Source: an uncultured virus (IMG/VR IMGVR_UViG_3300045119_000323) (Duplodnaviria; Heunggongvirae; Uroviricota; Caudoviricetes). Taken from it: 64,000 bases of DNA. The DNA lies in the IMG/VR virus record IMGVR_UViG_3300045119_000323. One strand, given 5' to 3'. The notes below the pieces were generated by a model. The model was not told the DNA's origin. It did no database searches and saw only the letters and a program-made list of their open reading frames with translations. Positions 2,030-30,351 of the stretch are shown here, in pieces; position 1 is the stretch's first letter; each line of letters starts with the position of its first letter. A program made the translations under genes and the position numbers.

Positions 2030-3685
2030 CTACCTCATCGCGCTCAGGGCACCGGGCGGCGGCCCACCACGCGGCGGCATCGGGATGCCACCCGGAGGTC
2101 CCGGCGGCGGCAGACCACCCAGCGCGCCACGGCCGGCGGCCGGCGGCAACGGCAAACCACCCGGCGCACCCATCGGCGGCATCGGCATACCGCCCGGCGG
2201 GCCCATGCCCTGCGGCGCGGGCGGCTTCTTCCTCGACATGATGCCGCGCTTGACCGGCACCGACCCGCCGACGTCGAACTTGCGCTGCGCGCCCTGCGTG
2301 CCGCGCCGGCCCATCAGGCCGCTGATGCCGACCTTGCCCAGCGCCCCGATGCTGGGAACGCTCGGCCGCGACGCCCCGCCCATGGTCGGCGAAACGACGG
2401 GACCGAATGCCGGCCCGCCCTGCGCGTAGCCCCGGATGCGGCCACCGCGCGCGGCCGTCTGCTGCTGCGGCGCGGGCGGTCCGTACTGCTGGCCGGACGT
2501 GCTGGGCCCGGTGACCGCGTTGTAGATGTTCGGGATGCCGCCGGTCGTCTTGCCCGAGGCGTCGGTCGACGAACCGAGCGTGTTGATCGCGCCCAAGGTG
2601 CCGAAGATGTCGCCGGCAATCGACGGGTTCGAGGTCGACGAGCCGGTGACGCCCGAGGTCGAGGACTGCTGGCCGCTCTGGTACTGCGGGATGGTCAGGC
2701 CGCGCTGCGCGGCGTTCATGAAGTTGACCATCTGGAACGGCCACTGCTGGGCCTGCTGGAACTGCTGGTACTGCGCCGTCAGCGGCAGTTGGTTCTGCTG
2801 CTGCTGCTGGTTGCCGGCCGCCAGCAGCGCCTGATTGTTGATCAGGTTGGTGTTCGACAGCGCGCCGCCGAGGTTCGAGTACGCGCCGGCCATGCCGATG
2901 CCGGAGTTGATCGCGCCCGACGTGATGTTGGCGTTGGTCGAGGCGAGGTTGGTGAGCGCCCCCATGTTGGTGTTGGCCAGACTGCCGAGCTGCGAGCCCG
3001 CGCTCTGCATGCGGCTCTGGTCGGTGTTGAACTGGTTGGCGGCGTTCCAGTACGCCTGATTCTCCATCGTCATGGCGTTGCCCGACTCGGTGTTGCCGAG
3101 ATCGCGCGTCGCGCGGCCGACCATGTTCTGGTAATTCTGCCGGCCGAGCTGGCCCTGTCCCCTGACGAACTGGGAGTTGAGGGTCGGCATCGTGTTTTCG
3201 GCGAAATTCTGCTCGGTCAGTTGATTGGCTCGACCGATTGCCCCCGACGTGTAGGGGTCCATGTAGCTCGACTGGGTCTGCGGGTTGTTCCACGCGCCGG
3301 CCGACTGCGTCAGGAAGCCCTGCCCGGCATCCCACGGTCGCGTCGCCGCGCCGGCCTGATCGAGCGCCGGCTGCGCACTGGTCTGCGGATTGTAGCCCGC
3401 AACATTACCGAGCGCCCCCGATGCCGCGTTGTAGTACGGCTGGTAGGCTCCCGAAGCGTTCTGCTGGATTTGACCGAAGGCCTGATTCTGCGCGTCCGTA
3501 AAGGGCGCGAACATCTTGCTGACGTCGTAGCCCTGATACGGCGTCTGGCCCAGACCCTGCGCCTGCTGCAGTATCTGGTTCACATACTGCATGTACTCAG
3601 GCGACTGAGTCGTCGACTGGTTGGACGAGGCGTTCTGCTGCTGCGCCTGCTGGGTGCCGCCGCTGCCCTGAAATAAGAACCCCAT
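2030..3685 (-). CDS. Putative DNA pilot/ejection protein, Q/N/G-rich, with C-terminal AxGG motifs
   Basis: Likely start MGFLFQGSGG at 3685. YMDPY motif and Gln/Asn-rich helices resemble phage pilot proteins. Carries AARGG, YAQGG and FDVGG near a Pro-rich tail. Confidence 0.6.
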   Translation of the reverse strand: MGFLFQGSGGTQQAQQQNASSNQSTTQSPEYMQYVNQILQQAQGLGQTPYQGYDVSKMFAPFTDAQNQAFGQIQQNASGAYQPYYNAASGALGNVAGYNPQTSAQPALDQAGAATRPWDAGQGFLTQSAGAWNNPQTQSSYMDPYTSGAIGRANQLTEQNFAENTMPTLNSQFVRGQGQLGRQNYQNMVGRATRDLGNTESGNAMTMENQAYWNAANQFNTDQSRMQSAGSQLGSLANTNMGALTNLASTNANITSGAINSGIGMAGAYSNLGGALSNTNLINNQALLAAGNQQQQQNQLPLTAQYQQFQQAQQWPFQMVNFMNAAQRGLTIPQYQSGQQSSTSGVTGSSTSNPSIAGDIFGTLGAINTLGSSTDASGKTTGGIPNIYNAVTGPSTSGQQYGPPAPQQQTAARGGRIRGYAQGGPAFGPVVSPTMGGASRPSVPSIGALGKVGISGLMGRRGTQGAQRKFDVGGSVPVKRGIMSRKKPPAPQGMGPPGGMPMPPMGAPGGLPLPPAAGRGALGGLPPPGPPGGIPMPPRGGPPPGALSAMR

Positions 3686-4152
3686 TACAGCACCTTCACC
3701 ATGGTGGCCGGGCCACGCCACCAGCCGAGCGGATCAAGCACGCGCCGCCAACCCGGCCGGCCCATCTCGAAGATGTAGGCGCAGCGATGCTCGCGCGCGT
3801 AGATCGAGACGGCCCTGTCGAACGAGGCGATCCAGTCCGCCATGCCGATGCCGCCGAGCGCGATGATGTTGAGCGCCTTGCCCTTGCTGCCGCATTCGAC
3901 CTTGGTGACGTAGGCTCCCACGAGGTTGCCGTGGTCGCGGATCGTCCACAGCGTCATGGCGTGGCGCAGCAGGTCGTTGAAGACGTCGTTTGCGCCAATC
4001 AGCGACCATTCGTTGTTGGTCGCCTTGTCGATCCAGCCGAAGACCTGCGACCACACATCCATCGGATGGTCGACCGTGGCGCAGACAATCGCGGGGTTGA
4101 GGTCGCTGTAAAGCTTCCACGAGTCGTTGAGGGGAATGATGTGATCCATCAC
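3685..4152 (-). CDS. Virion-module protein, possibly GNAT-like fold, 155 aa
   Basis: Coupled ORF with a GRPGWRRVL C-terminal motif, as in small proteins that precede ejection genes in podoviruses. Confidence 0.5.
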   Translation of the reverse strand: MMDHIIPLNDSWKLYSDLNPAIVCATVDHPMDVWSQVFGWIDKATNNEWSLIGANDVFNDLLRHAMTLWTIRDHGNLVGAYVTKVECGSKGKALNIIALGGIGMADWIASFDRAVSIYAREHRCAYIFEMGRPGWRRVLDPLGWWRGPATMVKVL

Positions 4153-5024
4153 AGGTAGCTTTCGGGCTCGTGCGCGTCGGGCGAGAACTTGCCCTTGGCC
4201 AGCGCCTTGCCCTTGTGCCGGCGCACATTCGCCCGAAATTTATCGAGCTTGGCCGCGCCCGCGTCGGGCGAGCCGTCGCCCAGCGCCGACACGGTCTCGG
4301 CGTCCATGACGTACTCGTTGGGACTGAGCCGCGCCTCGATGTTGTCGGAGCGGCCATTGCCGCCATTGGGCGGCTGGAAGCCGTGACCGCCGCCGCCGAA
4401 GTCGCCCTTGTCGCGCGGCCCGAGGAAATCCATGCCGCCATGCGCGAAGTGTTCGCGGATCGGCAGGCCCTGCGGCTCCGGCAGGCCGATGAGGTCGGGG
4501 TAGCCGCCGCGTGCCATGCCGCCCTGCGGACCAGCAGGTGGAGCTCCGCCGGCCTGCGGACCAGCAGGTGGAGCTCCGCCGGCCTGCGACATCAGCCCCC
4601 GGATCGCGCTCGTCGGATCGCCGCCGCCGATTCCGGCCGGCGGGATGCCCGCGCCGACGCTCTCGTGCATGCCCTGCACGACGCCCTGCAGCGCCTGCTG
4701 GGCCCCCTTGTGCATGGCCTCGACCAGCGCCTGCTGGTGTTCCATGCGCTGCTTCTGCTGGGTCTCGCCCGAAACCAGCCCGAGGACCCGGTTCACCAGC
4801 CCCTCGTTGCCGGGCTTTACGGGCGGTTTGGGAGGGCCGGCGGGGCCGGGCGGTACACCGGGAGGCATGCCCGGCGGAAGCGCTCCAGCGGGCCCCTGCG
4901 GGCCGCCGGGAGGGGCTCCGCCTGCCGGGCCGGGGGGCGGGCCGGCGGGAGGTCCAGCAGGCGGCCCACCGCCCGCTCCGGGCAGTTGAGATAAGGCTCC
5001 TTGAGGCGGTGGCATAGGCGGCAT
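4149..5024 (-). CDS. Pro/Gly-rich virion protein with a conserved C-terminal GxSDxIxARLSxxEYV domain
   Basis: GGGGAG RBS. MARGG and FAHGG motifs precede GRSDNIEARLSPNEYVMDAETVSALGDG, a pattern I recognise from phage virion and tape-measure proteins. Confidence 0.65.
   Translation of the reverse strand: MPPMPPPQGALSQLPGAGGGPPAGPPAGPPPGPAGGAPPGGPQGPAGALPPGMPPGVPPGPAGPPKPPVKPGNEGLVNRVLGLVSGETQQKQRMEHQQALVEAMHKGAQQALQGVVQGMHESVGAGIPPAGIGGGDPTSAIRGLMSQAGGAPPAGPQAGGAPPAGPQGGMARGGYPDLIGLPEPQGLPIREHFAHGGMDFLGPRDKGDFGGGGHGFQPPNGGNGRSDNIEARLSPNEYVMDAETVSALGDGSPDAGAAKLDKFRANVRRHKGKALAKGKFSPDAHEPESYL
4523..4588. repeat. 30-bp tandem repeat (2 full copies plus part of a third), encoding AGGAPPAGPQ
   Basis: cctgcggaccagcaggtggagctccgccgg repeated exactly. 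Confidence 0.9.
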
Positions 5025-16767: not shown

Positions 16768-17238
16768 TTAACTGGTCACCACGACCAGCGGATCGCCGGT
16801 CACGCGACCGATGAGATCGGTATCCTTGCAGATCATGAACACGGCATGCTCGTCCTTGGTCTGCCCTCCGGGGACAGGGACGACCCAGCGGTCTCCGCCA
16901 TACATCGGGCAGCGCACGAAGTCGCCGACCTGACACCACGCACCCTCGGCCCACGGCGCAAGGGTCGTGCGGTTCTTGAACGCCGATGGACCCGTCGCGC
17001 GCACCAGCCCAGTCTGTACGCGGTAGCGCTCGGCGTCGCGTGATTCATCTGGAATGATCAGGCCGCCCTTGCTGAGTCGTCGCGGCGTGCGGAGCTGCAT
17101 CAGCACCAGATAGCCGAACGGCACGACACCGGGGTCGACATCGGGGAAGGAAACCTTGAGAGCGTCGTCGTAGCGGTTGCCCAGAATGTCAGTCACGTTC
17201 CTGAGATTCAGGCCTTCGATTGCAGTCACGACATCCAT
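16768..17238 (-). CDS. GroES-like co-chaperonin
   Basis: PFGYLVL...SKGGLIIP...GLVRATGP...WCQVGDFV...D.LIG matches the Cpn10 pattern. Confidence 0.8.
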   Translation of the reverse strand: MDVVTAIEGLNLRNVTDILGNRYDDALKVSFPDVDPGVVPFGYLVLMQLRTPRRLSKGGLIIPDESRDAERYRVQTGLVRATGPSAFKNRTTLAPWAEGAWCQVGDFVRCPMYGGDRWVVPVPGGQTKDEHAVFMICKDTDLIGRVTGDPLVVVTS

Positions 17239-17964: not shown

Positions 17965-20682
17965 CTAGGGTCCGGGGTTCTGACCTGTTCCGGTCTTGAG
18001 ACGGTTCGAGGCCTTGTCGGCCTTGATGTTCTTCTCAGTGATTTCCAGCGCGGTCTGATTGTCTTCCTCGTTGGTCTTGATCTTGGCATCGACCTGATCG
18101 GCGGCGATCTGCTCGCGCGACTCGTTGGTATCGCTGGCGATGGCCTCGCGCGACTCATTCGACGCCAGCGCAGCCTCGTGAGTCAATGCCTGACCGTGCG
18201 CCGCCACGACATTGCTCTCGCGCGCCTGCTGGGCCTTGGCCTGCTGGTCGCGGTCCTTGGTCTCACTGTCTCTCGCCTGCTTGTCCTGATCGGCCTTGAG
18301 CTTGATCGCCGCCAAGGTGTCCTTGCGCTTGTCGGCTTCGGCCTTGGTCTGTGTCGCCACCAGTTGAAGCTGGGTCTTCTTCTGCTCGTTCTCATCCTTC
18401 GCCTGATCGGCCTGCTCCTGCCGGGTGACGTCCTTCATCGCCACCGCCGACGGGTCCATCGGCATCGGCGGCGCGAGGCGCTGCATCAGCATCTGGGCCT
18501 GCGCGATCACCGCCGGCAGTCGGGCGAGCTGCTCGTCGGCGTATTCCATGACGGCCGGCGTCAGCTCGGCGAGCAGGCGGTCGAGCGGTGCCTCGTAGAC
18601 CGGTCCGGCCATGCTCTCGATGGTGAGCTGCGGATCGCCGGTCTTCTCGCGCAGCGCGGTGTTGGCGGCATCGAGCATGGCGTCGGCGTACCACAGCGCG
18701 ATGTGCTCGCCGAGATGAGGCAGCAGCACCGGCAGGCACTTCTGCGCCAGCAGCGGGTTCGCCCCGAACAGCGGCGACATCAGGAAGGCGGCGTGGGTCG
18801 CCAGATGGGCCTCATGGTCCTGACCGGGGAACGCCTTGATCGGCAGGCCACCACATGACGTGGCGTTCTCGGCTACCGCGTTCTGTTGGGTCGGCTCGGG
18901 CGACGGCTGCAGGAACTGGTCGGGGTCCGGCACCTTCATCTGCTTGAGCAGATACTTCTCGGAATTGCGGACGTTGTAGATTTGCGGCAGCAGTTGCGCG
19001 CGCTGGCTGATCAACTGCGCCATCGACTGACGCTGGATGTCGGAGAAGATGCGAGGGTCGCTGACCGGGATCACCCGCATCGGGCCTTGGAAGTCTTCGC
19101 GCTTGACGATCAGCTCGCCGAACTGGTCCTGCACCTGCACGTTGTCGACGGTGTCGGCGTTGATGTCCCAGAGCTGCTTGAGGAAGCGCGCCATCGAGCG
19201 ATGCATGCGGCCATGCACGGCACCGAAATTCTTGAGGCCCTGCTCGATGAACATGTTGGCCGTGCCGACCGGCGTCTGGCCGTTCATCTTGTCGAATTCG
19301 TCGAACGTGGTGCGGATCACGCCCTGCGCCGCATCGACGAGGAAACCGAGCAGGTTGAACAGCACCGCCGACGGCGGCGGGAACGGCAGGGGCATGTAGG
19401 TCTTGCGGACGTCGTCCATCGCAAGCGTGCCCTTCATCTCGGTCGTCTGCATCGGCTGGGCCTTGATGTTCTGCCCACCCTCGGTCGCGCCTCCTTTGAG
19501 CTTTACGCCGGTCTGTGAGTTGTTGAGATGGGCCGCATCGAGCAGCGCCCGCAGCGCTCCGGTCGCCGCACCCGACAGGCCGCCAATCATGTGCGTCATG
19601 CCGATGGGATAGCCGCCGCGCCACGGGTAGAACGGCCATTCGATCACGAAATCGAGTCGTTTCTTGTCAGGATCGGTCTGCTTCCAGTTGCGATAAATTC
19701 CGAGGATTTTCTTGGTGTCGTCGTCGACCGTGACGATGTAGGGCTCGGCCGGATCGTCATCGTCCATCAGGCCTATCATCACCGACGACTCGAACACGAG
19801 GCGCACGTTGTCGACGTTCTCGCTCGGCCGGTCGCGGCCGATGATGCGGTCGTTGGACTGCTGCGAGCGCGTCTCGTCGGGCACGTCCTGCCCCGATTCC
19901 GGGTCGAAGGCGTCGACCCACAGGCCGGACCGCACGTTGTCCATGTACTGCCACTTGTCGACTTCCATCTCGTGGGTGATGCGCGGCTGCGTGTAGATCG
20001 GCCCGTCGCTCCATGGCCGATGGATTTTGTCGATGGTGATGGCGATCACGCTCATGCCCTGCGAGTCGTAGATCGTCTTGGTGTAGAAGCCGCCGCCCAG
20101 ACTGCACTGCGTGAAGCCCATCTCGAACTCGTGGGCGACGTTGGGCATCATGTCGGTGATCTGCAGGTTCATGTAGCGCGCGGTGCGCTCCGCGATGTCG
20201 TCCTTCTCCATGGTCGGCGTGCCGATGGTCTTGGCCTTCACCGGGCCCTCGGGCGGCATCATCTCGTTCATGATGCGCGAGGCGAAGTCGATGGCCGAAG
20301 CCGTCAACATCGGGTGGACGACCCGGCTGGCACCGGGGAACGTGGCACCACCGGGCGCGTCGTCACCAAGGCCCGTTCGACGCAGGCCCTCCTCGTACTG
20401 CTTGTCGCGCTTGGCGCGCGCCAGCTTGTCGATCTCGATGGCGTCGAGCAGATCAGTTGCGATCTTGCTCAGGCGCGTCGGGTCCATGGTCTCCACCAGA
20501 TTGGCGAAGTGGTCGCGCATGTCGGGCGGTGGCGGACCCTCGGGCGGCATCTGCACATCGACGTTGCCCTCCTCGTCGATGTTGAGATCGGAGCCAGCCG
20601 GAGTCGTCGTCTGCAGCGTCGATACGCCAGTGTCGCTACCCGGCTCGGCATAGGGGTCCATCGCGCCGTTGGTGAAGGCCAT
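17965..20682 (-). CDS. Portal protein, 905 aa
   Basis: FPGASRVVHPML...PPEGPVK...YMNLQIT...PVGT...PVSDP...QDHEAHL motifs; coiled-coil C-terminal barrel. Confidence 0.9.
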   Translation of the reverse strand: MAFTNGAMDPYAEPGSDTGVSTLQTTTPAGSDLNIDEEGNVDVQMPPEGPPPPDMRDHFANLVETMDPTRLSKIATDLLDAIEIDKLARAKRDKQYEEGLRRTGLGDDAPGGATFPGASRVVHPMLTASAIDFASRIMNEMMPPEGPVKAKTIGTPTMEKDDIAERTARYMNLQITDMMPNVAHEFEMGFTQCSLGGGFYTKTIYDSQGMSVIAITIDKIHRPWSDGPIYTQPRITHEMEVDKWQYMDNVRSGLWVDAFDPESGQDVPDETRSQQSNDRIIGRDRPSENVDNVRLVFESSVMIGLMDDDDPAEPYIVTVDDDTKKILGIYRNWKQTDPDKKRLDFVIEWPFYPWRGGYPIGMTHMIGGLSGAATGALRALLDAAHLNNSQTGVKLKGGATEGGQNIKAQPMQTTEMKGTLAMDDVRKTYMPLPFPPPSAVLFNLLGFLVDAAQGVIRTTFDEFDKMNGQTPVGTANMFIEQGLKNFGAVHGRMHRSMARFLKQLWDINADTVDNVQVQDQFGELIVKREDFQGPMRVIPVSDPRIFSDIQRQSMAQLISQRAQLLPQIYNVRNSEKYLLKQMKVPDPDQFLQPSPEPTQQNAVAENATSCGGLPIKAFPGQDHEAHLATHAAFLMSPLFGANPLLAQKCLPVLLPHLGEHIALWYADAMLDAANTALREKTGDPQLTIESMAGPVYEAPLDRLLAELTPAVMEYADEQLARLPAVIAQAQMLMQRLAPPMPMDPSAVAMKDVTRQEQADQAKDENEQKKTQLQLVATQTKAEADKRKDTLAAIKLKADQDKQARDSETKDRDQQAKAQQARESNVVAAHGQALTHEAALASNESREAIASDTNESREQIAADQVDAKIKTNEEDNQTALEITEKNIKADKASNRLKTGTGQNPGP

Positions 20683-23600
20683 CAGTAGCGTCCTCCGTTG
20701 CAGTACCTGAGCGCGCCACGCGGCACCTGCCCGCCAGTCGCCGACTTGAGGACGAGCTGCAATGGCGTGCCGCGCGCAAGGTCACCGAAGCCCTCGCCGA
20801 AGTGCCCCTGCACCATCGCACCGACACCCTCACCGAGTCGTCCAAACCCTTCGGCGAAAGCTCCACTGCCAACGCCACCAAACAACATGCTGACGCCGCG
20901 CCCGACCGCTCGGCCGGCGTCGCGGCCAATCAGCTCTCCCTGATCGAGGTTGGACGGTTTGTCGCCCGACAGCGCATCCCAGATGCCGGAGCCGGGGTCC
21001 ATCGGATAGGCTCCGCTCTCGGTCTCGCTCTGGCCGGGTCCGCCGGCAATGTGCTTGGTGAGGCTCGCAGCGTCGCCCATCCAGCCCATGATCGGCAGGC
21101 CGGCCATGCCGCTGGCATCGGCCCCCTGCGCGCCACCTTCGTTCCATATTCCGCCGCTGCCACCACCAACGCTGCCCATCAGGTCGCTGATGCCGCCACC
21201 CGCGAAGCCGGGGACGTAGCCGCCCTCGTCGTAGAACATGGTGCCGTAGTTGAGCATCTCGTCATCAACCTTGCCGCCCCCGGCCAAGAACATCGGCAGG
21301 ACCTTGAGCGCGAGATCGGCGATCTGGCCAATCGCCTGACCCGCGCCGCCTCCACCGCCCGATGATTGCTGCTTGGCCGGCTGCATGAACTGAAGGGGCG
21401 CGAGATCGCGCCCGCCATTGTCGCCGGTACTTGCGCCCGTCGGATCGGCGAGCGAGAGACCCTTGTCGACGCCGTCGCCGGCCTGCATCACGTCGATCAG
21501 CGACTTGCCGGGCACGGTGAAGTTGCTGCCGGTCGACGAGCCGCCGTCGGCGAAGCCGGGGATGTAGCCGCCGCGCGCCTCGAAGAGCCCCATGATGGCA
21601 TCCGCGCCGCCCGTGTCGCCGCCACCCAGCGAGCCGGGGTCCATGCCGCCGGGCAGCCCACCGAGGCCGCCGGTCGAGTTGAGGTCGCCGGTCGTGTAGC
21701 TGCCGCCGGGGCCGCTGCCGACCGGTCCGCTCGCCGACACAGGACTGCCCTTGCCGCCTAACAGGCTCTTGCCGGCGTTCGCCATGTTGAAGATTGAATC
21801 GAGCGGGCTGCTGGAGGTGCCGCTGCTGGCCTGCGCCGCCTGCGGCTGCATGAAGGAAAGCGGCGGCGGGGCGTGGCGCGCGATGTCGGGCATGTCGCCG
21901 AAGGCGTCGGTCGCGCCCGGCACGATGCCCTTGAGGAACGACATGATGTCGTCGTTGACCGATGAGCCGGACGATCTGTCGGTGCTGCCGCCGGAGGCGT
22001 AGTAGGCCGCGCCACTGGGATCGGCACCGCTGCGTGTCAGCGCCTCGCCCAAGTCGGCAGCCAGCCCACCGCCGACCTTCTCGGCCCCGGCGACATACGG
22101 CTTGAAGTCGGGCATGAAGTGCGCGAGCCACGACTGCAGGGTGTCGTGTTTCTGGTCGGTCAACGAATTGAAGGCGGTGCCTGCGCCGTAACCCAACCCG
22201 ACGCCCTGACGGAACTTGGCTGGCCCAAGGAACGGTGCCGTGTGACTGAGCGCCCCGACCGCGCCGCGCTGGTAGGGGGAGATGTCGTCGCCTGCCATGT
22301 TCAGTTTCCCTAGCTCTTCGCTCGCCAACTGGGCGAACGTGGCATCTTTTCCAAAACCACCACCCACCCAACGGTCGGTGGCACGCAGCTTGGCAATCAG
22401 GTCACTGGGCAAGAGATTGCGCAGGAACACTTCGCGCGACGACTTGAATTTGTCGTCGAGTCGTTCGGGGAAGCTCTTGTCCCAATCCTTCCACGTCTGG
22501 TTACGCCGCCACATCTCCTCCTTCTCGGGAAGATCGGCCAGCGCATCGATGCCGAGGTCGGCCACCTTGCGGGTGCGCGGGAAGGTACCGTAGTCGGGGT
22601 CGCCGCCCTCCTGCAGGCCCTGCACCGGGCCACCCTCGGCGTAGGCCCCGGCCTTGCCGGTCAGAACCAGATCGCGCGCCGTCTCGGGCGATACGCCGAG
22701 GCGCGCCGCCGTTCGCATGATCTGGCCCGACATCATCTCCAGCTTGGACGGACCGATGTAGCGCACACCGGTCTGCGGCCCCAGCGTGTTCCAAATCATC
22801 GCCTGCATGTCGCGCGGCTGCATGCCGACTTTCTCGCTGGCGCGCTGCCACCACGGCACGAAGTCGCCGTACTCCGGCGTGGTCAGTTCCTTGAACAGGT
22901 TGTCGGCGCTGCCTGTCCTGACGTCGGAGTAACCGACACCACGCGCGAGATGGGCGTCGGCAATCGGCCGGCGCGGATCGGCAAGGACCGGATCGGTTGC
23001 CTGCACATAGGTCGGTACCTTGTGCCGGTCGGTCCACAACTGGCCCGATGCTTCGAGGTTGATCAGCGGCTTGCTATGTGCCGTCGAATGGTAGGCGTGG
23101 CCCGGTATCTGGAGCATGTCCTCCGGATAGTTTCCCATGCTCACGCGCTGATGCTCCGGCACACCTGCGAGGTCGATGTAGTCACCGAGCCGCCCCGCCT
23201 CGGCCAGCCAGTTGGCCGACGTGCCGCGATTGATCTCGGAGCGCGGCGACGCACCCGCCGAATGCAGGCCGACGCGCGTGTTGAACATCCGCTGGTACTC
23301 GGGCGACATGCCGAGCTGGTCCATGCGATCCCACAGCGGCTGCATCTCGTACCACGACCGCGTCAGACGCAACTGCGGATCGTCCAGCGCCGCCTCGGCG
23401 ACGTTGGTGATGCGGTTCATGTTGCTGGGCGTCAGGACCTTGTCGGAAATCGCCGAACCGGTCGCGCCGGGCGGCGGATAGTAGGCATGCGGCTGCATGA
23501 ACAGGTTCGAGTGGTTACGACTCTGCGAGAGGTCGTCGAGGCTCTGGCGGTCGACGCTGAATAGACGGCGCATCGCCTGCTCGTCGCCCTCGTCGTAACG

Positions 23601-26600
23601 TGCCTTGGCTTCGGCGATGATCTGGGCCGGCGGCTTGTAAATGCCGGCAAAGGCCATGCGCTCGGGATTGGTGACGGTTTGAATCTTGGGATCGGGCGGC
23701 AAATAAATCGGCGCGGCTTTCGGGCCACGCAGGGCGTTGAGTCGTTTTTCCTCTTCGAGCGCGGCAGCAATCCGACGACTCAATGCACCGCCGGTCGGCC
23801 GATAACCGACCTGCGAGAGCGCGCCGCCCTCCTGATCTTGGGTGACATCGGTATCACCCACATCCTGCGAGTCGTCGGCCGGCAGGCCGAAGCCGCCGAA
23901 AGCGTAATTGCGGATCATGCCACCCTCGGCCTTGCCGAAATTGAAATCGAGTTGCGCCGGATCGCTGTCCTTGAGCGGGTTGCCGGTCTTGCGTTCGAGG
24001 TAATCGGCCCAGCTCGTCATGGCATCCTTCAACGAGAAGTTGGGATAGCCCGACAGGTTGCCCTGCACGTCGACCGGCACGCCCATCTCGCTGAGACGGG
24101 CCAGCGATGGCACCGTGGCCAGATCGAGCGACGCCGGGTTCCACGCCGCCGCCACGGCACCGGTCTTGGGATGCAGGATCGGCACGCGCGGCTTGTAATC
24201 GGCGAGGCCGTGCGCCTTGGCCCAGTCGGCGTAGGCGTCCTCCATGGCCTTCGATTCATCGGACGTCGCGCCGAAGCGGCTTTTCTGGTCGAAGATGCTG
24301 CCGATATGCTGGGCAACATCACGACGCTGGCTGTAGCCCGCACCCTCGTCCCATGCGTTGTGCACGCCGCCGAGACGCACGAGGTTACCGTGCTGGTTGG
24401 CAACCAGCATCTCCGGCAGATTACCGAAGCTCGACCACATGTTCTTCGGCAGATACGACGAGTAGATGTCGCCCTCCGACGGCATGTTCGACCACGGCAC
24501 CTTGGGCAGGCCGAACGGCGCATCCATGTCAGGATGGGGATGCACCGACCACGGCTGGCCCGGCGCATTGGCCCACAGGTTCTTTTTGACGGTGCCGGTC
24601 AGGCGGACGCTGCCCTTGTCGCCCGGCAGCATGCGCCCGGTGTAAGGCTTGGCGAGGTCGTCGCCGTAACGCCCGTGGACCAGCGCCTCGTTGCCGGTCT
24701 CGTCGACATGCTTGAGAACCCGCTCGACGCCCTTCTGGACCGACGGGTCGAGGCTCTCCTTGAGCGCGCCCTTGTTGAAGAAGTTTATCAACTTCAGCGG
24801 ATTGATCGCCGCGAGCTGCGAGAGCGCTCCACCGCCCTCTGCGTCGGGCTGGCCGCCGACATCGAAGTGCTGCACGCGACCTCCTTCGGCCTTCTCGCGG
24901 TTGACGATGTCGATCAGGTCGGACGATTGCGGGAAGACGACGTAGTTGCGCGTCCTGCCGGGGTCGTCCTCCATTGGTCCGGCGAATGGAAAACGTTGCT
25001 GCTGCCGGCTGAACTTGTCGAGGAAGCGAACGCCATGCACGTCGAGGTCCGACAGGTAATTGGCGGTCATCTTCTTGGCCGAGTCGTCGTAGAACGCATC
25101 CGACATCACACCTTGCGGGCCGGGCTGCATCAGGAAGTGATGCAGGTCGCGCCCGGTATAACCGTCAGGTGCATCCCATGGGCTGTTCAGACCTTCGTAG
25201 TCGAGATGCTCGCCGATGCTGTCGGCGACATTCGGATGAACCCTGTCCATGATCCGGCGATTGCCGCCCTTGTCGAGGGGCGCATCCCAATCGAGAAAAT
25301 TGTCGGGGTGCGAGTTGATGTCGAGATGGTAGAGCCAACCGGGCTTCTGCGGTTTGTAAAACGGCGGAATGCCCGCGATGGTTCGCTTGATCTGGTCGGG
25401 ATCGAATTCCTGACCCGTCTTGCTTCCGCCGTAGGTGTTGCCGAGTTTAGCGGCGATCTCCTCGGGAGTGGAGCCGCCGGCCAGATTGTTCTGGAGGTAG
25501 CGCGCCAGCATCTCGGTGCGGCCGGGGTCGTCGAGATCGACGTGCTGCTTGATCAGCGCCTCCATCATGCTGTTCATGCCGAGGCGATCTACCGGGGCAC
25601 CGTAGCGCGTCCAGCGGCCGGGCTCCTCGCTCTTGTCACCCGTGATGCGGCGGTACTCCTGACCGACCTGCGGGTTCTCGGCCGAGTAGAAGCCGTGGCC
25701 GTAGGCGGCGCTGCCCTCGCCCTTGCCGATGAACGACGGATCGAACTTGTCGAACTTGTAGGGCGAGCCAGTGTAGGTGCGGATCGGACGACTCAGTGCG
25801 CCCTTCGCCGCCTCGATGCCCTTCTTCACCAGACCCAGTTCGTTCATGTGCGGGACGGCACCGCCGTCGGCGAACGGCACCGTGAGCCGCAGCCCGGCAC
25901 CCCAGTGCGGCTTGGCCTGATCGCCGCCGGGGCCGACATACTTGTTGAAGCTGCCCGACGCGCCGAGCCGCGCACCCTGCTTCCCGATGGGATGCTCGTA
26001 GCCCAGCAGGGCGTCGACGATCTGCGCAGTCGGATCGTAGCTGAACCCCGCCGTGCCCTTGCCGTCGCCCAGCGGGACGTCGAACGTCGGCGTGCCGTAG
26101 TCGCTGTGAAACCCCGGCACCCCACCGCCCTCGGCCCACGTCTCGGGCAGGCGCGGGAAGTCCTGTTCGTCCTGAAATCCCCGGCTGGCGAGCGGCTCGA
26201 AGGTGTTGGAATACTGCGGGATCACCCGGCCGCTGCCCTCCTTCTCCAGCATGTCACGCAGTACCTTGGCCCGTTCGCCGGCCGGCAACTGCTGCAGGAT
26301 GGAGCTGGGATCGTCGGGCCTGATGCCGACCAATGACACGTTGTCGCCCAGCGGCCCCGCCATCGTCATCATGCGATGACGGCCCTCGTGCCGCGTCGTG
26401 CGCGGCAGCGCGGTTTGAGTCATATCGTTGGGGTGCCAACCATAACGCCCCTGTTCCGGGGTTAGGCCAAAACTGAGGCGCGGCACCTCGGACCAGTTGC
26501 CTTGCTTGGCGACGTCGCCGTAGTTGTTTAGCACCTGATTGAGCGAGCCGACCAATCCCTGAGAACTGAACTCGTTGGCCAGTTGGTAGGGGTTCTCGCG

Positions 26601-26933
26601 CAGCCTGTCGGGATCGATGCGAAAGGCGTAGTCCTGAAACGTCTTGGGATCGATGGTCGTCAGCAGATGGCCCTGCTCCGGATTGACCGCCGTCTCCAGC
26701 GCGCGCTGCGTGTAGTACGAAAGATCGGCCCCCTCATCCTGCGCCTTGATGAGTCGTCGGGCGTGTTCTTCGCCCCAGTAGTCACCAACCTTGGCGACGT
26801 TCAGGGCCACGCGACGCGCCGCGTCGCTCTGAATCTCCGGCGCGGCCAGCGCAGATGCGCGCGGCACGAACAGTGGGTCCACTGCCTTCTTCGCAGCCTT
26901 TATGGTTCGCGCAATTTTGACAGGGTCGACCAA
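20682..26933 (-). CDS. Giant polyvalent (multi-enzyme) protein, 2083 aa, with modules separated by AxGG motifs
   Basis: GGGGAG RBS with TTG start; stop overlaps the portal ATG. ParB-like HEGRHR, ART-PolyVal-like GSP..FDKFD...IGKGEG..AYGHGFY, JAB-like HPHP...PSEGD, and a glycosylase-like D.H..R...QAMIW module. Confidence 0.8.
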   Translation of the reverse strand: MVDPVKIARTIKAAKKAVDPLFVPRASALAAPEIQSDAARRVALNVAKVGDYWGEEHARRLIKAQDEGADLSYYTQRALETAVNPEQGHLLTTIDPKTFQDYAFRIDPDRLRENPYQLANEFSSQGLVGSLNQVLNNYGDVAKQGNWSEVPRLSFGLTPEQGRYGWHPNDMTQTALPRTTRHEGRHRMMTMAGPLGDNVSLVGIRPDDPSSILQQLPAGERAKVLRDMLEKEGSGRVIPQYSNTFEPLASRGFQDEQDFPRLPETWAEGGGVPGFHSDYGTPTFDVPLGDGKGTAGFSYDPTAQIVDALLGYEHPIGKQGARLGASGSFNKYVGPGGDQAKPHWGAGLRLTVPFADGGAVPHMNELGLVKKGIEAAKGALSRPIRTYTGSPYKFDKFDPSFIGKGEGSAAYGHGFYSAENPQVGQEYRRITGDKSEEPGRWTRYGAPVDRLGMNSMMEALIKQHVDLDDPGRTEMLARYLQNNLAGGSTPEEIAAKLGNTYGGSKTGQEFDPDQIKRTIAGIPPFYKPQKPGWLYHLDINSHPDNFLDWDAPLDKGGNRRIMDRVHPNVADSIGEHLDYEGLNSPWDAPDGYTGRDLHHFLMQPGPQGVMSDAFYDDSAKKMTANYLSDLDVHGVRFLDKFSRQQQRFPFAGPMEDDPGRTRNYVVFPQSSDLIDIVNREKAEGGRVQHFDVGGQPDAEGGGALSQLAAINPLKLINFFNKGALKESLDPSVQKGVERVLKHVDETGNEALVHGRYGDDLAKPYTGRMLPGDKGSVRLTGTVKKNLWANAPGQPWSVHPHPDMDAPFGLPKVPWSNMPSEGDIYSSYLPKNMWSSFGNLPEMLVANQHGNLVRLGGVHNAWDEGAGYSQRRDVAQHIGSIFDQKSRFGATSDESKAMEDAYADWAKAHGLADYKPRVPILHPKTGAVAAAWNPASLDLATVPSLARLSEMGVPVDVQGNLSGYPNFSLKDAMTSWADYLERKTGNPLKDSDPAQLDFNFGKAEGGMIRNYAFGGFGLPADDSQDVGDTDVTQDQEGGALSQVGYRPTGGALSRRIAAALEEEKRLNALRGPKAAPIYLPPDPKIQTVTNPERMAFAGIYKPPAQIIAEAKARYDEGDEQAMRRLFSVDRQSLDDLSQSRNHSNLFMQPHAYYPPPGATGSAISDKVLTPSNMNRITNVAEAALDDPQLRLTRSWYEMQPLWDRMDQLGMSPEYQRMFNTRVGLHSAGASPRSEINRGTSANWLAEAGRLGDYIDLAGVPEHQRVSMGNYPEDMLQIPGHAYHSTAHSKPLINLEASGQLWTDRHKVPTYVQATDPVLADPRRPIADAHLARGVGYSDVRTGSADNLFKELTTPEYGDFVPWWQRASEKVGMQPRDMQAMIWNTLGPQTGVRYIGPSKLEMMSGQIMRTAARLGVSPETARDLVLTGKAGAYAEGGPVQGLQEGGDPDYGTFPRTRKVADLGIDALADLPEKEEMWRRNQTWKDWDKSFPERLDDKFKSSREVFLRNLLPSDLIAKLRATDRWVGGGFGKDATFAQLASEELGKLNMAGDDISPYQRGAVGALSHTAPFLGPAKFRQGVGLGYGAGTAFNSLTDQKHDTLQSWLAHFMPDFKPYVAGAEKVGGGLAADLGEALTRSGADPSGAAYYASGGSTDRSSGSSVNDDIMSFLKGIVPGATDAFGDMPDIARHAPPPLSFMQPQAAQASSGTSSSPLDSIFNMANAGKSLLGGKGSPVSASGPVGSGPGGSYTTGDLNSTGGLGGLPGGMDPGSLGGGDTGGADAIMGLFEARGGYIPGFADGGSSTGSNFTVPGKSLIDVMQAGDGVDKGLSLADPTGASTGDNGGRDLAPLQFMQPAKQQSSGGGGGAGQAIGQIADLALKVLPMFLAGGGKVDDEMLNYGTMFYDEGGYVPGFAGGGISDLMGSVGGGSGGIWNEGGAQGADASGMAGLPIMGWMGDAASLTKHIAGGPGQSETESGAYPMDPGSGIWDALSGDKPSNLDQGELIGRDAGRAVGRGVSMLFGGVGSGAFAEGFGRLGEGVGAMVQGHFGEGFGDLARGTPLQLVLKSATGGQVPRGALRYCNGGRY

Positions 26934-28547: not shown

Positions 28548-28662
28548 CGCCTGATCACCGCATAAGGTTGCCCGCCGTACAGGATGTACTCCACTGCAGC
28601 CTCGCCGTAGGCCATCGCCAGAATCAGCAGGACGGCCAACAGCAGAACACGGCCAAGGTGGT

Positions 28663-28911
28663 TCACTTGGTGATGGATTTTACCGCCCACATGACAGCCT
28701 CTTCCATCTTGGTGATGGCGAGCGACAACTCGCGGCTGGTGCCCAGCACGCCACACATTTCGATGAACGACAGGCCAAGGTCTTTGATCTGTTTCATCTG
28801 CGCTTTCTCAACCTCGGTCAGCACGCGGTACTCGTGGCGCATCACGTTGTTGGTCACGCGCTGGTCGGAAGTCGACGGCACGAATTCAGGGTTGGTGTCA
28901 GGGATGGTCAT
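28663..28911 (-). CDS. Acb2/Tad1-family cyclic-nucleotide sponge (anti-CBASS/anti-Thoeris) candidate, 82 aa
   Basis: GGAGG RBS; YRVL...EKAQM..IK...RELSLAITKMEEAVMWAVK matches the Acb2/Tad1 helical hairpin signature as I recall it. Confidence 0.75.
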   Translation of the reverse strand: MTIPDTNPEFVPSTSDQRVTNNVMRHEYRVLTEVEKAQMKQIKDLGLSFIEMCGVLGTSRELSLAITKMEEAVMWAVKSITK

Positions 28912-29088
28912 GGGCCCTCCATATCGGCAGCATAAGGGCGAACCTTGTGACCTTAAAGGGCGATTGCTGTGTCAGGCTGTGGCCGAGTCGTCCGGCCTGT
29001 CCCCGCTATCCACCGGGTTATACCGGCAGCTAATTAGATGCTAGACAGCTACCGACTGCGCCAACGACTCGGGACCACGATGCCCGCC

Positions 29089-29328
29089 ATGGCTGACAAG
29101 CCACCGTTCGACGCGGCCCGCTACTGCTTCTGGCTGATCGCCTGCCTGCTTGCCGTGCAGTGCTTCGCCTTCCTGATGGGGCTCGGCTGGTGCATGTGGG
29201 TGGGAGCCGCCATTGTCGAAGGGCGTTTTACCTGCGAACGACTCGGGTCGCAGCTCACCGAACTACTCACCATGGGGCTCGCCGCCGCCCTCGCCTTTGC
29301 CGGCGGCCTGACAGGGAAGGATAAGTGA
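29089..29328 (+). CDS. Two-TM membrane protein, holin/antiholin candidate
   Basis: Two hydrophobic stretches; upstream of the endolysin. Confidence 0.5.
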   Translation: MADKPPFDAARYCFWLIACLLAVQCFAFLMGLGWCMWVGAAIVEGRFTCERLGSQLTELLTMGLAAALAFAGGLTGKDK

Positions 29329-29329
29329 C

Positions 29330-29479
29330 ATGCTGCTCATGGTCCTGTTTTGGGTGATCCTCGTGATCACCGCACTCGGTGGCTTCTGGTACTGGCGCGT
29401 TCAGCCTTGGCTGCCCGGCTACGGCGTCGTGCTGCTGCTGATCGCCATGCTCGGGTTCAAAGTCTTTCCGCCGTTGTAA
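29330..29479 (+). CDS. Small two-TM protein, holin candidate, 49 aa
   Basis: MLLMVLFWVILVITALGGFWYW...VVLLLIAMLGFKVF directly before the endolysin. Confidence 0.55.
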   Translation: MLLMVLFWVILVITALGGFWYWRVQPWLPGYGVVLLLIAMLGFKVFPPL

Positions 29480-29483
29480 GGCC

Positions 29484-29924
29484 ATGGACAATCCCGAACA
29501 CTTCGCGCTGGCGGAATTCCTCGCCAGCGATACCGCCGATTCCATCGGCGAAAGCAACTACCCGACGTGGCAGGTCACCGACAACCTGAAACGACTCGGC
29601 GAGACCATGGAGCGCGTCCGCGCGATCCTCGGCGACAATTCGGTGACGGTGCTGTCAGGTTACCGCTCGCCGCCGGTCAACGACGCAGTCGGCGGAGCCA
29701 CCAACAGCGCCCACCTGTACGGCCTCGGCTGCGACTTCGTCTGTCCAGACTACGGCACGCCGCTCGACATCTGCCGCGAGCTGGAGACCTACATGGAGGT
29801 GCTGGGGATCGACCAGCTCATCTGGGAATTCGAGGACTGGGTCCACCTCGGCCTGAGCGAGGGCGCGCCGCGCAACCAGTGCCTGACCATCGATGAACAG
29901 GGCACCCGCGAAGGCTTCGCGTAA
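29484..29924 (+). CDS. Peptidase M15A endolysin (Zn D-Ala-D-Ala peptidase fold)
   Basis: SGYRS..VN.AVGG...SAHLYGLGCD...DQLIWE..WVH. Confidence 0.9.
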   Translation: MDNPEHFALAEFLASDTADSIGESNYPTWQVTDNLKRLGETMERVRAILGDNSVTVLSGYRSPPVNDAVGGATNSAHLYGLGCDFVCPDYGTPLDICRELETYMEVLGIDQLIWEFEDWVHLGLSEGAPRNQCLTIDEQGTREGFA

Positions 29925-29994
29925 CCGCAACCAAATCGGCGTATGGTGGTTCTGACTACGTTGCAACGACTCGATCCAAAAGGAGTACTCCCCC

Positions 29995-30351
29995 ATGGTT
30001 AAGCTCGTCCACATCAACAAGGTTGGCGGCGACCTCTACGTCGTGCGCGAAGCCCACCTGCCGGTCGATCCCGGCTTCGGCGTCGGCGGCGGTCACCCCG
30101 ATCAGGGCCTGCCCGGCTCGCCGGGCCATCCGGACCACGAACTGCCGCACCTGCCGGGCATCCCCGACAACTCGCTGCCGACCCATCCGCCCGGCATGGT
30201 GATGCCCGGCATGGTCCTCGTGCTGGCCCGCACGCCCGACGGCAAGTGGCACTGGGCGTCGATCCCGGCCAATGTGCCCGTACAGCCCCTGCCGGAGCCG
30301 CCTGTGGCCCCCAGTCAGGGTTTGCCGCCGACTGCCGCCCCCAAGGCCTGA
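29995..30351 (+). CDS. Pro/Gly-rich hypothetical protein, 118 aa
   Basis: AAGGAG RBS; repeated (H)PD..LP units. Confidence 0.75.
   Translation: MVKLVHINKVGGDLYVVREAHLPVDPGFGVGGGHPDQGLPGSPGHPDHELPHLPGIPDNSLPTHPPGMVMPGMVLVLARTPDGKWHWASIPANVPVQPLPEPPVAPSQGLPPTAAPKA

Follow-up and report, generated by a model that had tools for sequence, protein, structure and literature searches.

Polyvalent proteins of phages and conjugative elements, as described by Iyer et al. 2017 (PMC5512222), carry many unrelated enzyme domains in one polypeptide, are encoded with the portal-terminase module, and are packaged; in the accessible part of that paper, their processing into separate domains is predicted, with zincin-like MPTase domains as the agents. 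The sites at which such proteins are thought to be cut into separate effectors have so far not been located. Here, we describe a conserved peptide at the module joints of a protein with the same overall organization, P0001, the 2083-amino acid (aa) product of the open reading frame (ORF) 26933..20682 (minus strand) in a 64,000-nucleotide (nt) stretch of DNA from an uncultured virus (IMG/VR record IMGVR_UViG_3300045119_000323; the whole of this stretch is called the window below). A preliminary description of the window proposed that a recurring Ala-x-Gly-Gly motif delimits the enzyme modules of this protein and serves as a maturation-cleavage or capsid-loading tag. The peptide is a real, conserved joint signal, and a cut by a protease is the role that we tentatively prefer for it.

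Proteins of three other phages provide points of comparison. The tape-measure protein pb2 of phage T5 is cut after R1127, according to the accessible text of Linares et al. 2023 (PMC10038345). In cyanophage A4, gp26-gp29 assemble on the portal into a pentameric pre-ejectosome (PDB 9K3A), as reported in the part of Hou et al. 2025 (PMC12002296) available to us. Finally, gpH of phage lambda loses a C-terminal piece of ~14 kDa (yielding gpH* and gpHC), and the accessible text of the respective paper (PMC12617516) states that both the site and the catalyst are unknown.

The layout of P0001 is given below, with the modules and joints in the order of the protein. The family to which the entries refer consists of the proteins that share module 5, the core; P0002 and similar labels denote its members, ADP-ribosyltransferase is abbreviated as ART, and pLDDT is the predicted local distance difference test score of AlphaFold2 (AF2) models.

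20682..26933, minus strand: polyvalent protein gene, 2083 aa, open throughout; TTG start, TGA stop
26859..26933, minus strand: N-terminal amphipathic basic helix, VDPVKIARTIKAAKKA..., like the helix after each internal joint
26139..26846, minus strand: module 1, aa ~30-265, with HEGRHR; found by jackhmmer in 27 family proteins at varied positions
26124..26138, minus strand: joint 1, WAEGG, aa 266-270; the P0004 alignment breaks at aa 272
25875..26123, minus strand: module 2, small block, aa 271-353; only in the close relatives P0002 and P0023
25860..25874, minus strand: joint 2, FADGG, aa 354-358, then a helix ending in GALS; pLDDT below 50 at aa 340-369, helix at aa 361-379
24885..25799, minus strand: module 3, ART fold, divergent ART-PolyVal, aa 379-683; AF2 pLDDT mostly 80-93
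24831..24893, minus strand: joint 3, KAEGG-x4-FDVGG-x2-DAEGG, aa 681-701; pLDDT below 50 at aa 684-723; BLAST breakpoint
23934..24830, minus strand: module 4, JAB/MPN+, aa 702-1000; E749, H798, H800, S819, D822
23775..23933, minus strand: joint 4, KAEGG-x4-YAFGG, an acidic stretch, DQEGGALS and TGGALS, running into a helix, aa 1001-1053
22644..23696, minus strand: module 5, family core, aa 1080-1430; all-alpha HhH-GPD (DNA-glycosylase-like) fold
22602..22643, minus strand: joint 5, YAEGG-x4-LQEGG, aa 1431-1444; pLDDT drop; alignments of relatives end here
22002..22601, minus strand: module 6, block aa 1445-1644; also near the N-terminus of P0045 (aa 96-287)
21987..22001, minus strand: joint 6, YASGG, aa 1645-1649
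20685..21986, minus strand: glycine-rich tail, aa 1650-2083; repeated motif units, terminal YCNGGRY; partly shared with 25 family proteins

The Gly-Gly peptide is enriched beyond glycine richness

All the motifs that had been listed for P0001 are found at the places given for them: WAEGG (aa 266, nt 26138), FADGG (aa 354, nt 25874), KAEGG-FDVGG-DAEGG (aa 681-701, nt 24893-24831), KAEGG-YAFGG-DQEGG (aa 1001-1037), YAEGG-LQEGG (aa 1431-1444), YASGG (aa 1645), EARGG-FADGG (aa 1785-1798), LAGGG-YDEGG-FAGGG (aa 1883-1914), SATGG (aa 2064) and YCNGG (aa 2077), along with HEGRHR at aa 182 and GALS, present five times. Some of these instances (DQEGG, LQEGG, SATGG, those of the LDKGG type) fit the motif only loosely.

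The excess over composition was assessed with 5000 shuffles each of the whole protein or within segments of 100, 50 or 30 aa. The pattern A.GG occurs 13 times compared to a mean of 3.56 under the global shuffle and 4.26-4.72 under the local ones, a count reached by 0, 1, 2 and 1 of the 5000 shuffles (global, 100, 50 and 30 aa, respectively), so that AxGG is indeed commoner than a Gly-rich composition predicts. GALS, with five occurrences against 0.15-0.16 expected, is not matched by any of the 5000 shuffles, and the same holds for [FYWK]A.GG (9 observed against 0.44-0.54 expected) and its doubled form (5 against 0.02-0.03), two patterns that were defined after the sequence had been seen. Bare GG is not enriched over local composition (51 against 44.8-47.2, reached by 734-1354 of the 5000 shuffles), and therefore, the signal is the context around GG rather than glycine richness. 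The codons of the motif vary synonymously and follow gene-wide usage, which implies selection on the peptide and rules out a DNA-level repeat as its cause.

The same preference extends across the family. With aa 1040-1445 of P0001 as the query, 456 proteins of 279 to 2996 aa were recovered at E<=1e-3 among 1.84 billion cluster representatives, 313 of them at E<=1e-30; the core family amounts to 456 clusters at 50% identity and is found on 253 viral contigs, and no Pfam model covers the core. At 1306 isolated GG sites in 153 family proteins, F or Y is overrepresented at position -3 (~4x), A at -2 (2.3x), E at -1 (2.5x) and V at +2 (4.7x), which yields the consensus [FY]-A-E-G-G-x-V, often doubled as GG-x-V-x2-3-[FY]-A-x-GG, and a single joint often holds two or even three copies.

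The motif at module boundaries and natural termini

The position of the motif at module boundaries, suggested previously from the look of the blocks between the motifs, is borne out by three independent lines of evidence: structure prediction, homology breakpoints and a census of the modules in the family. In the AlphaFold models, the last ordered residues of two domains are at aa ~1430 and ~683, immediately followed by motifs located in linkers with pLDDT below 50. The model of aa 1040-1460, built with 64 diverse sequences (pLDDT 87, predicted TM score (pTM) 0.84), is ordered over ~aa 1050-1430, and precisely at YAEGG (aa 1431), its pLDDT declines from 97 through 53 to 32. In a second model (aa 340-1045), the ART module is resolved at ~aa 379-683, and both FADGG (aa 354) and KAEGG-FDVGG-DAEGG (aa 681-701) lie at pLDDT below 50; the JAB part of this model is poor (pLDDT 26-61, fold not resolved), so that the boundaries of the JAB module rest on evidence other than structure. 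The BLAST breakpoints against relatives fall at aa 272, 349, 682-700, 1004-1007 and 1437-1439; at the last of these points, the alignments of five relatives end, and that of a sixth (P0008) ends at aa 1430.

At these points, relatives delete, add and reorder modules, as expected of the cassette-like gene that had been proposed. P0004 aligns to aa 49-272 and 682-1439 of P0001, such that exactly the stretch from WAEGG to KAEGG is absent, and in P0003, the JAB module (P0001 aa 656-1007) precedes the ART module (aa 349-694), the reverse of the order in P0001. Among 157 other proteins of the family, 27 contain the HEGRHR module, 23 the ART module, 11 the JAB module and 154 the core; both the position and the order of the modules vary, and modules also occur behind the core. 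The strict motif follows the C-terminal end of the module in 20 of 27 ParB-like, 9 of 19 ART, 3 of 7 JAB and 75 of 151 core modules, as opposed to 7-17% for random positions of the same proteins; P0001, its near-copies P0002 and P0023, and two phiGT1 proteins were left out of this count, and matches had to reach within 45 residues of the module end.

The motif also occupies natural termini. It lies no more than 12 residues after the last helix of the core module in 82 of 152 proteins, which then either run on into further modules or stop 2-25 residues later; natural C-termini, with the stop codon directly following, include ...FSEGGQVDDSTL, ...KKEGGLV and ...FAAGGRVR, and at IMG/VR loci with ample DNA beyond the stop, ...AYSSGGSV and ...AYRSGGIIR. 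Most of the other core-module proteins end in a hydrophobic Gly/Ala-rich segment with an acidic tip. Proteins that begin with the core module have as their natural N-terminus a basic helix of ~20-27 residues; when a module lies upstream of the core, the order is motif, amphipathic helix, domain. P0001 itself starts with such a basic helix and ends with the motif. Because natural termini and internal joints are alike, the unit of construction consists of a helix, a domain and a Gly-Gly tail, and gene fusion and fission occur between the Gly-Gly tail and the following helix. Four relatives (P0042, P0044, P0156 and P0105) end exactly at the aromatic residue before A-E-G-G, that is, at the T5-type cut position, and these ends are either natural stops or contig ends.

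The modules of P0001

As a whole, P0001 matches no family in Pfam (E<=0.01) or PHROGs (E<=0.001), and the identity of its modules comes from folds and active-site motifs. In the core module, a glycosylase-like block had been suspected, and a structure search with the AF2 model shows an HhH-GPD fold. The first 22 rows of the VIA-align search are all HhH-GPD glycosylases (Ogg, endonuclease III, MutY, AlkA, AGOG, MagIII) or the queuine-salvage enzyme, and the best match is Thermotoga maritima Ogg (3n0u_A; Z 10.9, 185 residues, 3.3 Å), compared to Z<=4.3 for unrelated rows; Foldseek also places Ogg in its top rows, with probability 0.89-0.96 but at E 0.3. K1305, D1326 and H1328 are invariant in 64 core-module sequences, the first two as candidate counterparts of the catalytic Lys and Asp of the superfamily, and we take ADAHLAR of the core to resemble an endonuclease III motif. 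None of the 64 aligned members matches the HhH-GPD Pfam families or DUF7178 at E<=0.1, and the core profile finds no relative at E<=0.1 in the PDB. The identification of the core with DUF7178 was accordingly rejected; the DUF7178 match of P0009 lies elsewhere in that protein. In prokaryote genome contigs, 17 pattern matches to the core were obtained, none of which was confirmed. In BFVD, the fold recurs in proteins of uncultured phages that carry, in addition, the labels ART-PolyVal-like, 'large polyvalent protein associated domain' or cell-wall hydrolase. The family is large and unnamed; its core with a DNA-glycosylase fold travels with swappable ART, JAB and other modules beside the portal gene, and the enzyme may represent a previously undescribed type that enters the host together with the phage genome.

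The ART-like block likewise proves to have an ART fold. The best VIA-align match of module 3 is a chain of the A4 pre-ejectosome (9k3a_B, Z 11.3), followed by diphtheria toxin (Z 8.8), PARP10 (8.3) and ParT (7.8), and ART folds also make up most of the remaining rows at Z>=5. By sequence, the module is divergent: it remains below the gathering score of PF18760 (31.2 bits), with no match at E<=0.01, and P0002 reaches 15.9 bits (E 0.023). In modules homologous to module 3, PF18760 matches 16 of 33 long relatives at E<=1e-3 (21.5-90 bits), 5 of the 33 above the gathering score; ART-PolyVal modules are thus found in relatives of P0001. Most relatives read YHGS, in which the His is presumably the NAD-binding residue of ART, whereas P0001, P0002 and P0003 read YTGS (P0001 aa 387-391; window 25760-25775, minus strand). 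Because of this replacement, the activity of the P0001 module is uncertain, and it may be inactive or altered.

The block described as JAB-like has an intact JAMM motif, and the alignment of the family shows it to be conserved, with HxH in 11 of 11 and SxxD in 10 of 11 aligned modules (the eleventh is partial). Database leads to the JAB clan are weak (P0005 against Prok-JAB, E 0.061; Atlas scores of at most 0.81 for Toxin-JAB1 and Prok-JAB), and P0001 itself has no Pfam match. For module 1, the HEGRHR motif noted before is present and invariant in the family, whereas the ParB/Srx-like identity is not reflected in any match: module 1 has none in Pfam, the N-terminal family profile has none among PDB sequences, and hhalign of this profile against P1 DdrB (a single-sequence target) gave none either (probability 0.14). 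ParB/Srx is, then, a putative label that denotes resemblance by a short motif only. A search for shorter homologues of aa 1-1040 returned only one 97%-identical fragment. The glycine-rich tail of P0001 contains 16-28% G per 80 residues and a single hydrophobic stretch (aa 1867-1886), located directly before FLAGGGKV. Many relatives (P0005, P0007, P0024, P0029, P0033 and others) contain a further conserved cargo module (...NDAFRxVHDxxGHFxPGNPFF...RGQNSW...) that is absent from the window.

Genomic setting

The gene for P0001 lies between the genes for the terminase and the portal, the same arrangement as in relatives. The genes that define this setting are the following.

17965..20682, minus strand: portal gene, 905 aa; matches genes annotated portal/head-to-tail connector; ATG overlaps the polyvalent stop by 1 nt
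35168-33642, minus strand: T4-type large terminase
13938-13006, minus strand: Mu-gpT/HK97-like capsid protein
9495-8833, minus strand: SU10-type adaptor
8836-6989, minus strand: tail-collar fibre

The 905-aa protein is 23-39% identical to the products of genes from Roseobacter phages CRP-901/902, phage DSL-LC04 and Planktothrix phage Pag-Yong1 for which the depositors gave the annotation portal or head-to-tail connector, and it also matches the gene after the terminase in Caulobacter phages RLK, GB2A, KcrB and RW, which are the nearest cultured relatives by terminase (46.7% identity); among PDB sequences, the portal protein has no meaningful match. The window is GC-rich (62-68%) and belongs to a phage genome of ~68 kb; the longest contig listed for P0001 has 68,072 bases.

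Conservation of this order was assessed in the best 80 of 253 confirmed IMG/VR loci that encode the core module. A terminase homologue is located upstream on the same strand in 35 of the 80 loci; a portal homologue is present in 24, in 23 of these downstream and on the same strand, and in 11 of them, the portal alignment starts ~200 nt or less from where the module gene ends. The other loci are those of phages whose terminase and portal escape detection by the queries from the window. P0001 combines two or more unrelated enzymatic or effector domains (ART fold, JAMM motif, HhH-GPD fold) with three further blocks, in a phage with portal-terminase packaging that encodes TerL, capsid, adaptor and fibre proteins in the window and a portal homologue directly downstream, features that fit a polyvalent protein.

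The TTG codon is the first start possible after the upstream stop and is preceded by GGGGAG 6 nt on its 5' side. At the other end of the gene, TGA and the ATG of the portal gene share one base (TGATG), with GGAGGA just 5' of this ATG, so that the translational coupling to the portal gene inferred previously appears plausible from the arrangement of these signals. The GGA GGA codons of the terminal ...NGGRY motif (window 20680-20705, minus strand) double as this Shine-Dalgarno GGAGGA, and therefore, the need to translate the portal may act as an additional constraint on the last copy of the motif.

The motif is also present in two further proteins encoded in the window, both from its ejection and tail region.

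2030..3721, minus strand: 563-aa Q/N-rich ejection-like protein; YAQGG (aa 432), FDVGG (aa 482); ends ...GALSAMR
4149..5024, minus strand: 291-aa Pro/Gly-rich protein; starts ...QGALSQL; MARGG (aa 170), FAHGG (aa 193)

The former matches phrog_4287 'DNA ejection protein' (E 2.4e-7), and the last 67 aa of the latter are 64% identical to the C-terminus of gp066c of Caulobacter phage RLK. The motif thus marks a group of proteins that are probably internal or ejected, rather than P0001 alone. RLK gp066c (L087 5477-7219) contains MARGGYAV and ends in ...RYMDGGRV; its counterpart in phage GB2A is annotated 'tape measure', although the relatives of the window look like podoviruses.

Elsewhere in the window, four plus-strand ORFs (158, 96, 146 and 118 aa; high GC content at third codon positions) at 28568-30351 break up the run of late genes on the minus strand, between those for the terminase and the polyvalent protein. 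A 156-aa ORF (16768-17238, minus strand) that overlaps the end of a 443-aa ORF (16954-15623) shows a sub-threshold Pfam match to Cpn10 (GroES-like), at E 4.2e-4 and 20.7 bits against a cut-off of 21.1.

What the joint peptide may do

The explanation that we favour, with appreciable reservation, is that P0001 is a head-packaged, ejected polyvalent protein, of the pre-ejectosome or cargo type, of an uncultured podovirus, and that the tail peptide of each cassette is cut by a protease. Each cassette, predicted to fold independently, starts with a short amphipathic helix, continues as a globular domain and closes with a disordered tail ending in [FYK]-A-[ED]-G-G-x-[VI], often doubled; the tail is the conserved end-signature of the cassettes, staying as the joint where cassettes are fused. 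Under this scenario, it would act as a recognition peptide at which a host or phage protease cuts the chain. If the register is that of T5 pb2, the cut would fall directly before the Ala of AEGG, and a single gene would yield several separately acting modules, namely, the ART-fold, JAB and DNA-glycosylase-fold domains and a membrane-active tail. We infer the packaging, the ejection, the cut and its register; that the A4 pre-ejectosome sits on the portal argues for a location of such proteins in the head. With a peptide now at the joints and one mapped cut in the same register, the question is open to a simple proteomic or mutational test.

Several observations weigh against this explanation. 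No cut has been observed so far in the P0001 family, and no protease can be named. The core module has no match in 50,697 deposited phage records (tblastn, E<=0.01), so that there is no cultured member. The motif is the C-terminal tail of single-module relatives, in many of them 2-8 residues before the stop (for example, ...YSSGGSV and ...KKEGGLV), where a cut would remove almost nothing; a maturation cut alone does not account for this, and a motif located at the very C-terminus is explained by a terminal tag no less well than by a site of cutting. The T5 precedent stands alone, and its site deviates from the consensus, with R rather than an aromatic residue at -3 and M rather than V at +2. 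In the accessible text on A4 (PMC12002296), gp27 is modelled as one protein, from residues 114-154 up to Cys1715, and the motif [FY]AxGG is absent from gp26-gp29, so that neither the motif nor an evident cut is a requirement for large ejection proteins. The 291-aa protein of the window (P0160) is not significantly similar to lambda gpH by BLASTP (E at least 2.5), so that the likeness to tape-measure proteins is limited to the short motif.

An alternative is a peptide that is never cut and acts as a tag or hinge, that is, a docking, packaging or threading signal by which the cassettes or the whole bead-on-a-string chain would bind a common partner within the head or the tail channel, or would traverse the channel one domain at a time. 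We consider this a real possibility, if somewhat doubtful. Many single-module relatives naturally end in the motif, RLK gp066c ends in ...MDGGRV, doubled and tripled copies at one joint are frequent, and A4 gp27 appears, in the available part of PMC12002296, as one chain in the pre-ejectosome. Furthermore, the flanks of the motif are more alike within than between proteins (0.158 against 0.133, a difference reached in 0 of 300 label permutations), although this likeness is small and could be explained by composition or internal duplication. Such a tag has no known partner, T5 pb2 is cut exactly at such a site, and the A4 proteins assemble into a pre-ejectosome without the motif.

A passive linker, a flexible Gly-Gly spacer or fusion scar left from the ends of once-separate genes and unrecognized by any factor, would also lie in predicted disordered segments and at points of fusion and fission, as the motif does. 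We regard this as improbable because the conserved aromatic-Ala-Glu and Val would be superfluous for a spacer, and yet are kept across ~35%-identical proteins and unrelated modules. Still less credence can be given to self-processing, whereby the JAMM metalloprotease module would cut after the Gly-Gly of each joint, as JAB enzymes do on ubiquitin-like C-termini. The intact, family-conserved JAMM motif (E749, H798, H800, S819, D822) speaks for such an activity, but the JAB module is found in only 11 of 157 other proteins whereas the motif is family-wide, T5 pb2 is cut before Ala and not after Gly-Gly, the JAB fold is not resolved in the AF2 model, and no ubiquitin-like fold precedes the joints in two AF2 models. 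Finally, that P0001 is a late cytoplasmic multi-enzyme rather than a virion component, with an incidental portal adjacency, is a reading that the lack of proteomic data for the family and the lack of Pfam and PHROGs matches would allow but that is hardly credible given the conserved terminase-gene-portal order, the overlap of the P0001 gene with the portal start, the match of the ART module to a solved pre-ejectosome chain, and the description of the class as packaged in the accessible text of PMC5512222.

Returning to the tentatively preferred cut by a protease, a broader and rather unlikely extension is that [FY]-A-E-G-G-x-V acts generally as a cut-or-dock signal in proteins exiting the virion via the tail channel, read by one conserved factor, possibly of the host. 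If so, the signal would encompass podovirus ejection proteins, polyvalent cargo and siphovirus tape-measure proteins (T5 pb2, lambda gpH), and the motif would locate both the predicted processing sites of polyvalent proteins and the cut in lambda gpH (before A734 of HFATGG).

Comparison with known systems

In other viruses, too, short linear signals direct the packaging or the cleavage of proteins inside the virion. The internal proteins of T4 lose a capsid-targeting sequence to the prohead protease, and adenovirus and African swine fever virus polyproteins are processed at Gly-Gly-X by known proteases, with motifs that differ from [FY]AEGGxV.

T5 pb2 offers the mapped site. In the T5 record, the sequence at the cut is ...NSFVPR/AEGGMMYPGVSY, with AEGGMMY after the cut (slash); pb2 has 5 GG sites, and no other of them is part of an AEGG. 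The site lies between a hydrophobic stretch and the next domain, and in P0001, the only hydrophobic stretch of the tail likewise directly precedes FLAGGG; unlike P0001, pb2 is a siphovirus tail protein with one copy of the motif, and there is no homology outside the motif. In the accessible text of PMC10038345, host involvement in the pb2 cut appears only in the title of a cited 1973 paper. A search for longer proteins with the pb2 C-terminus is uninformative on the conservation of the cut site because the best 120 of 429 matches are all T5-like and at least 94% identical. Just after its glycine-rich hydrophobic stretch, in the region from which the ~14-kDa piece is removed, lambda gpH contains HFATGG (732-737) and YATGG (778-782, in GYATGGYV).

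Cyanophage A4 (A-4L) links this cargo family to a solved pre-ejectosome structure. Its gp27 is a ~1700-aa protein inside the capsid on the portal, and residues 1418-1610 of chain B are the best match of the P0001 ART module (Z 11.3, 164 residues aligned, root-mean-square deviation 4.9 Å). Chain B of 9K3A is presumably gp27, the only one (1717 aa) long enough for those residue numbers. ADP-ribosylation is mentioned 0 times in the accessible text of PMC12002296, such that the ART-fold domain of A4 gp27 was apparently not recognized there. The A4 genes lie downstream of the tail genes, whereas the gene for P0001 lies between the terminase and the portal. A tblastn search with P0001 of the phage collection that includes the A-4L record matched only phiGT1, and the accessible part of the phiGT1 paper (PMC10386132) contains nothing on gp5.

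The closest comparison remains that with the polyvalent proteins. P0001 resembles them in the joining of many unrelated enzyme domains in one polypeptide and in its coding context, and differs in that an MPTase was proposed as the processing agent there, whereas P0001 has no MPTase match. The words 'linker', 'glycine' and 'glycosylase' each occur 0 times in the accessible text of PMC5512222, and therefore, the Gly-Gly joint motif and the HhH-GPD core are not described in that text. In the open-access literature, neither 'AEGG' with 'phage' nor DUF7178 led to a paper, and none was found on the Gly-Gly motif. The polyvalent class, then, was already known; what the present analysis adds are the family-scale statistics of the motif, the helix-domain-tail unit with its natural termini, the HhH-GPD core, the conserved position of the gene between terminase and portal, and the link to a solved pre-ejectosome.

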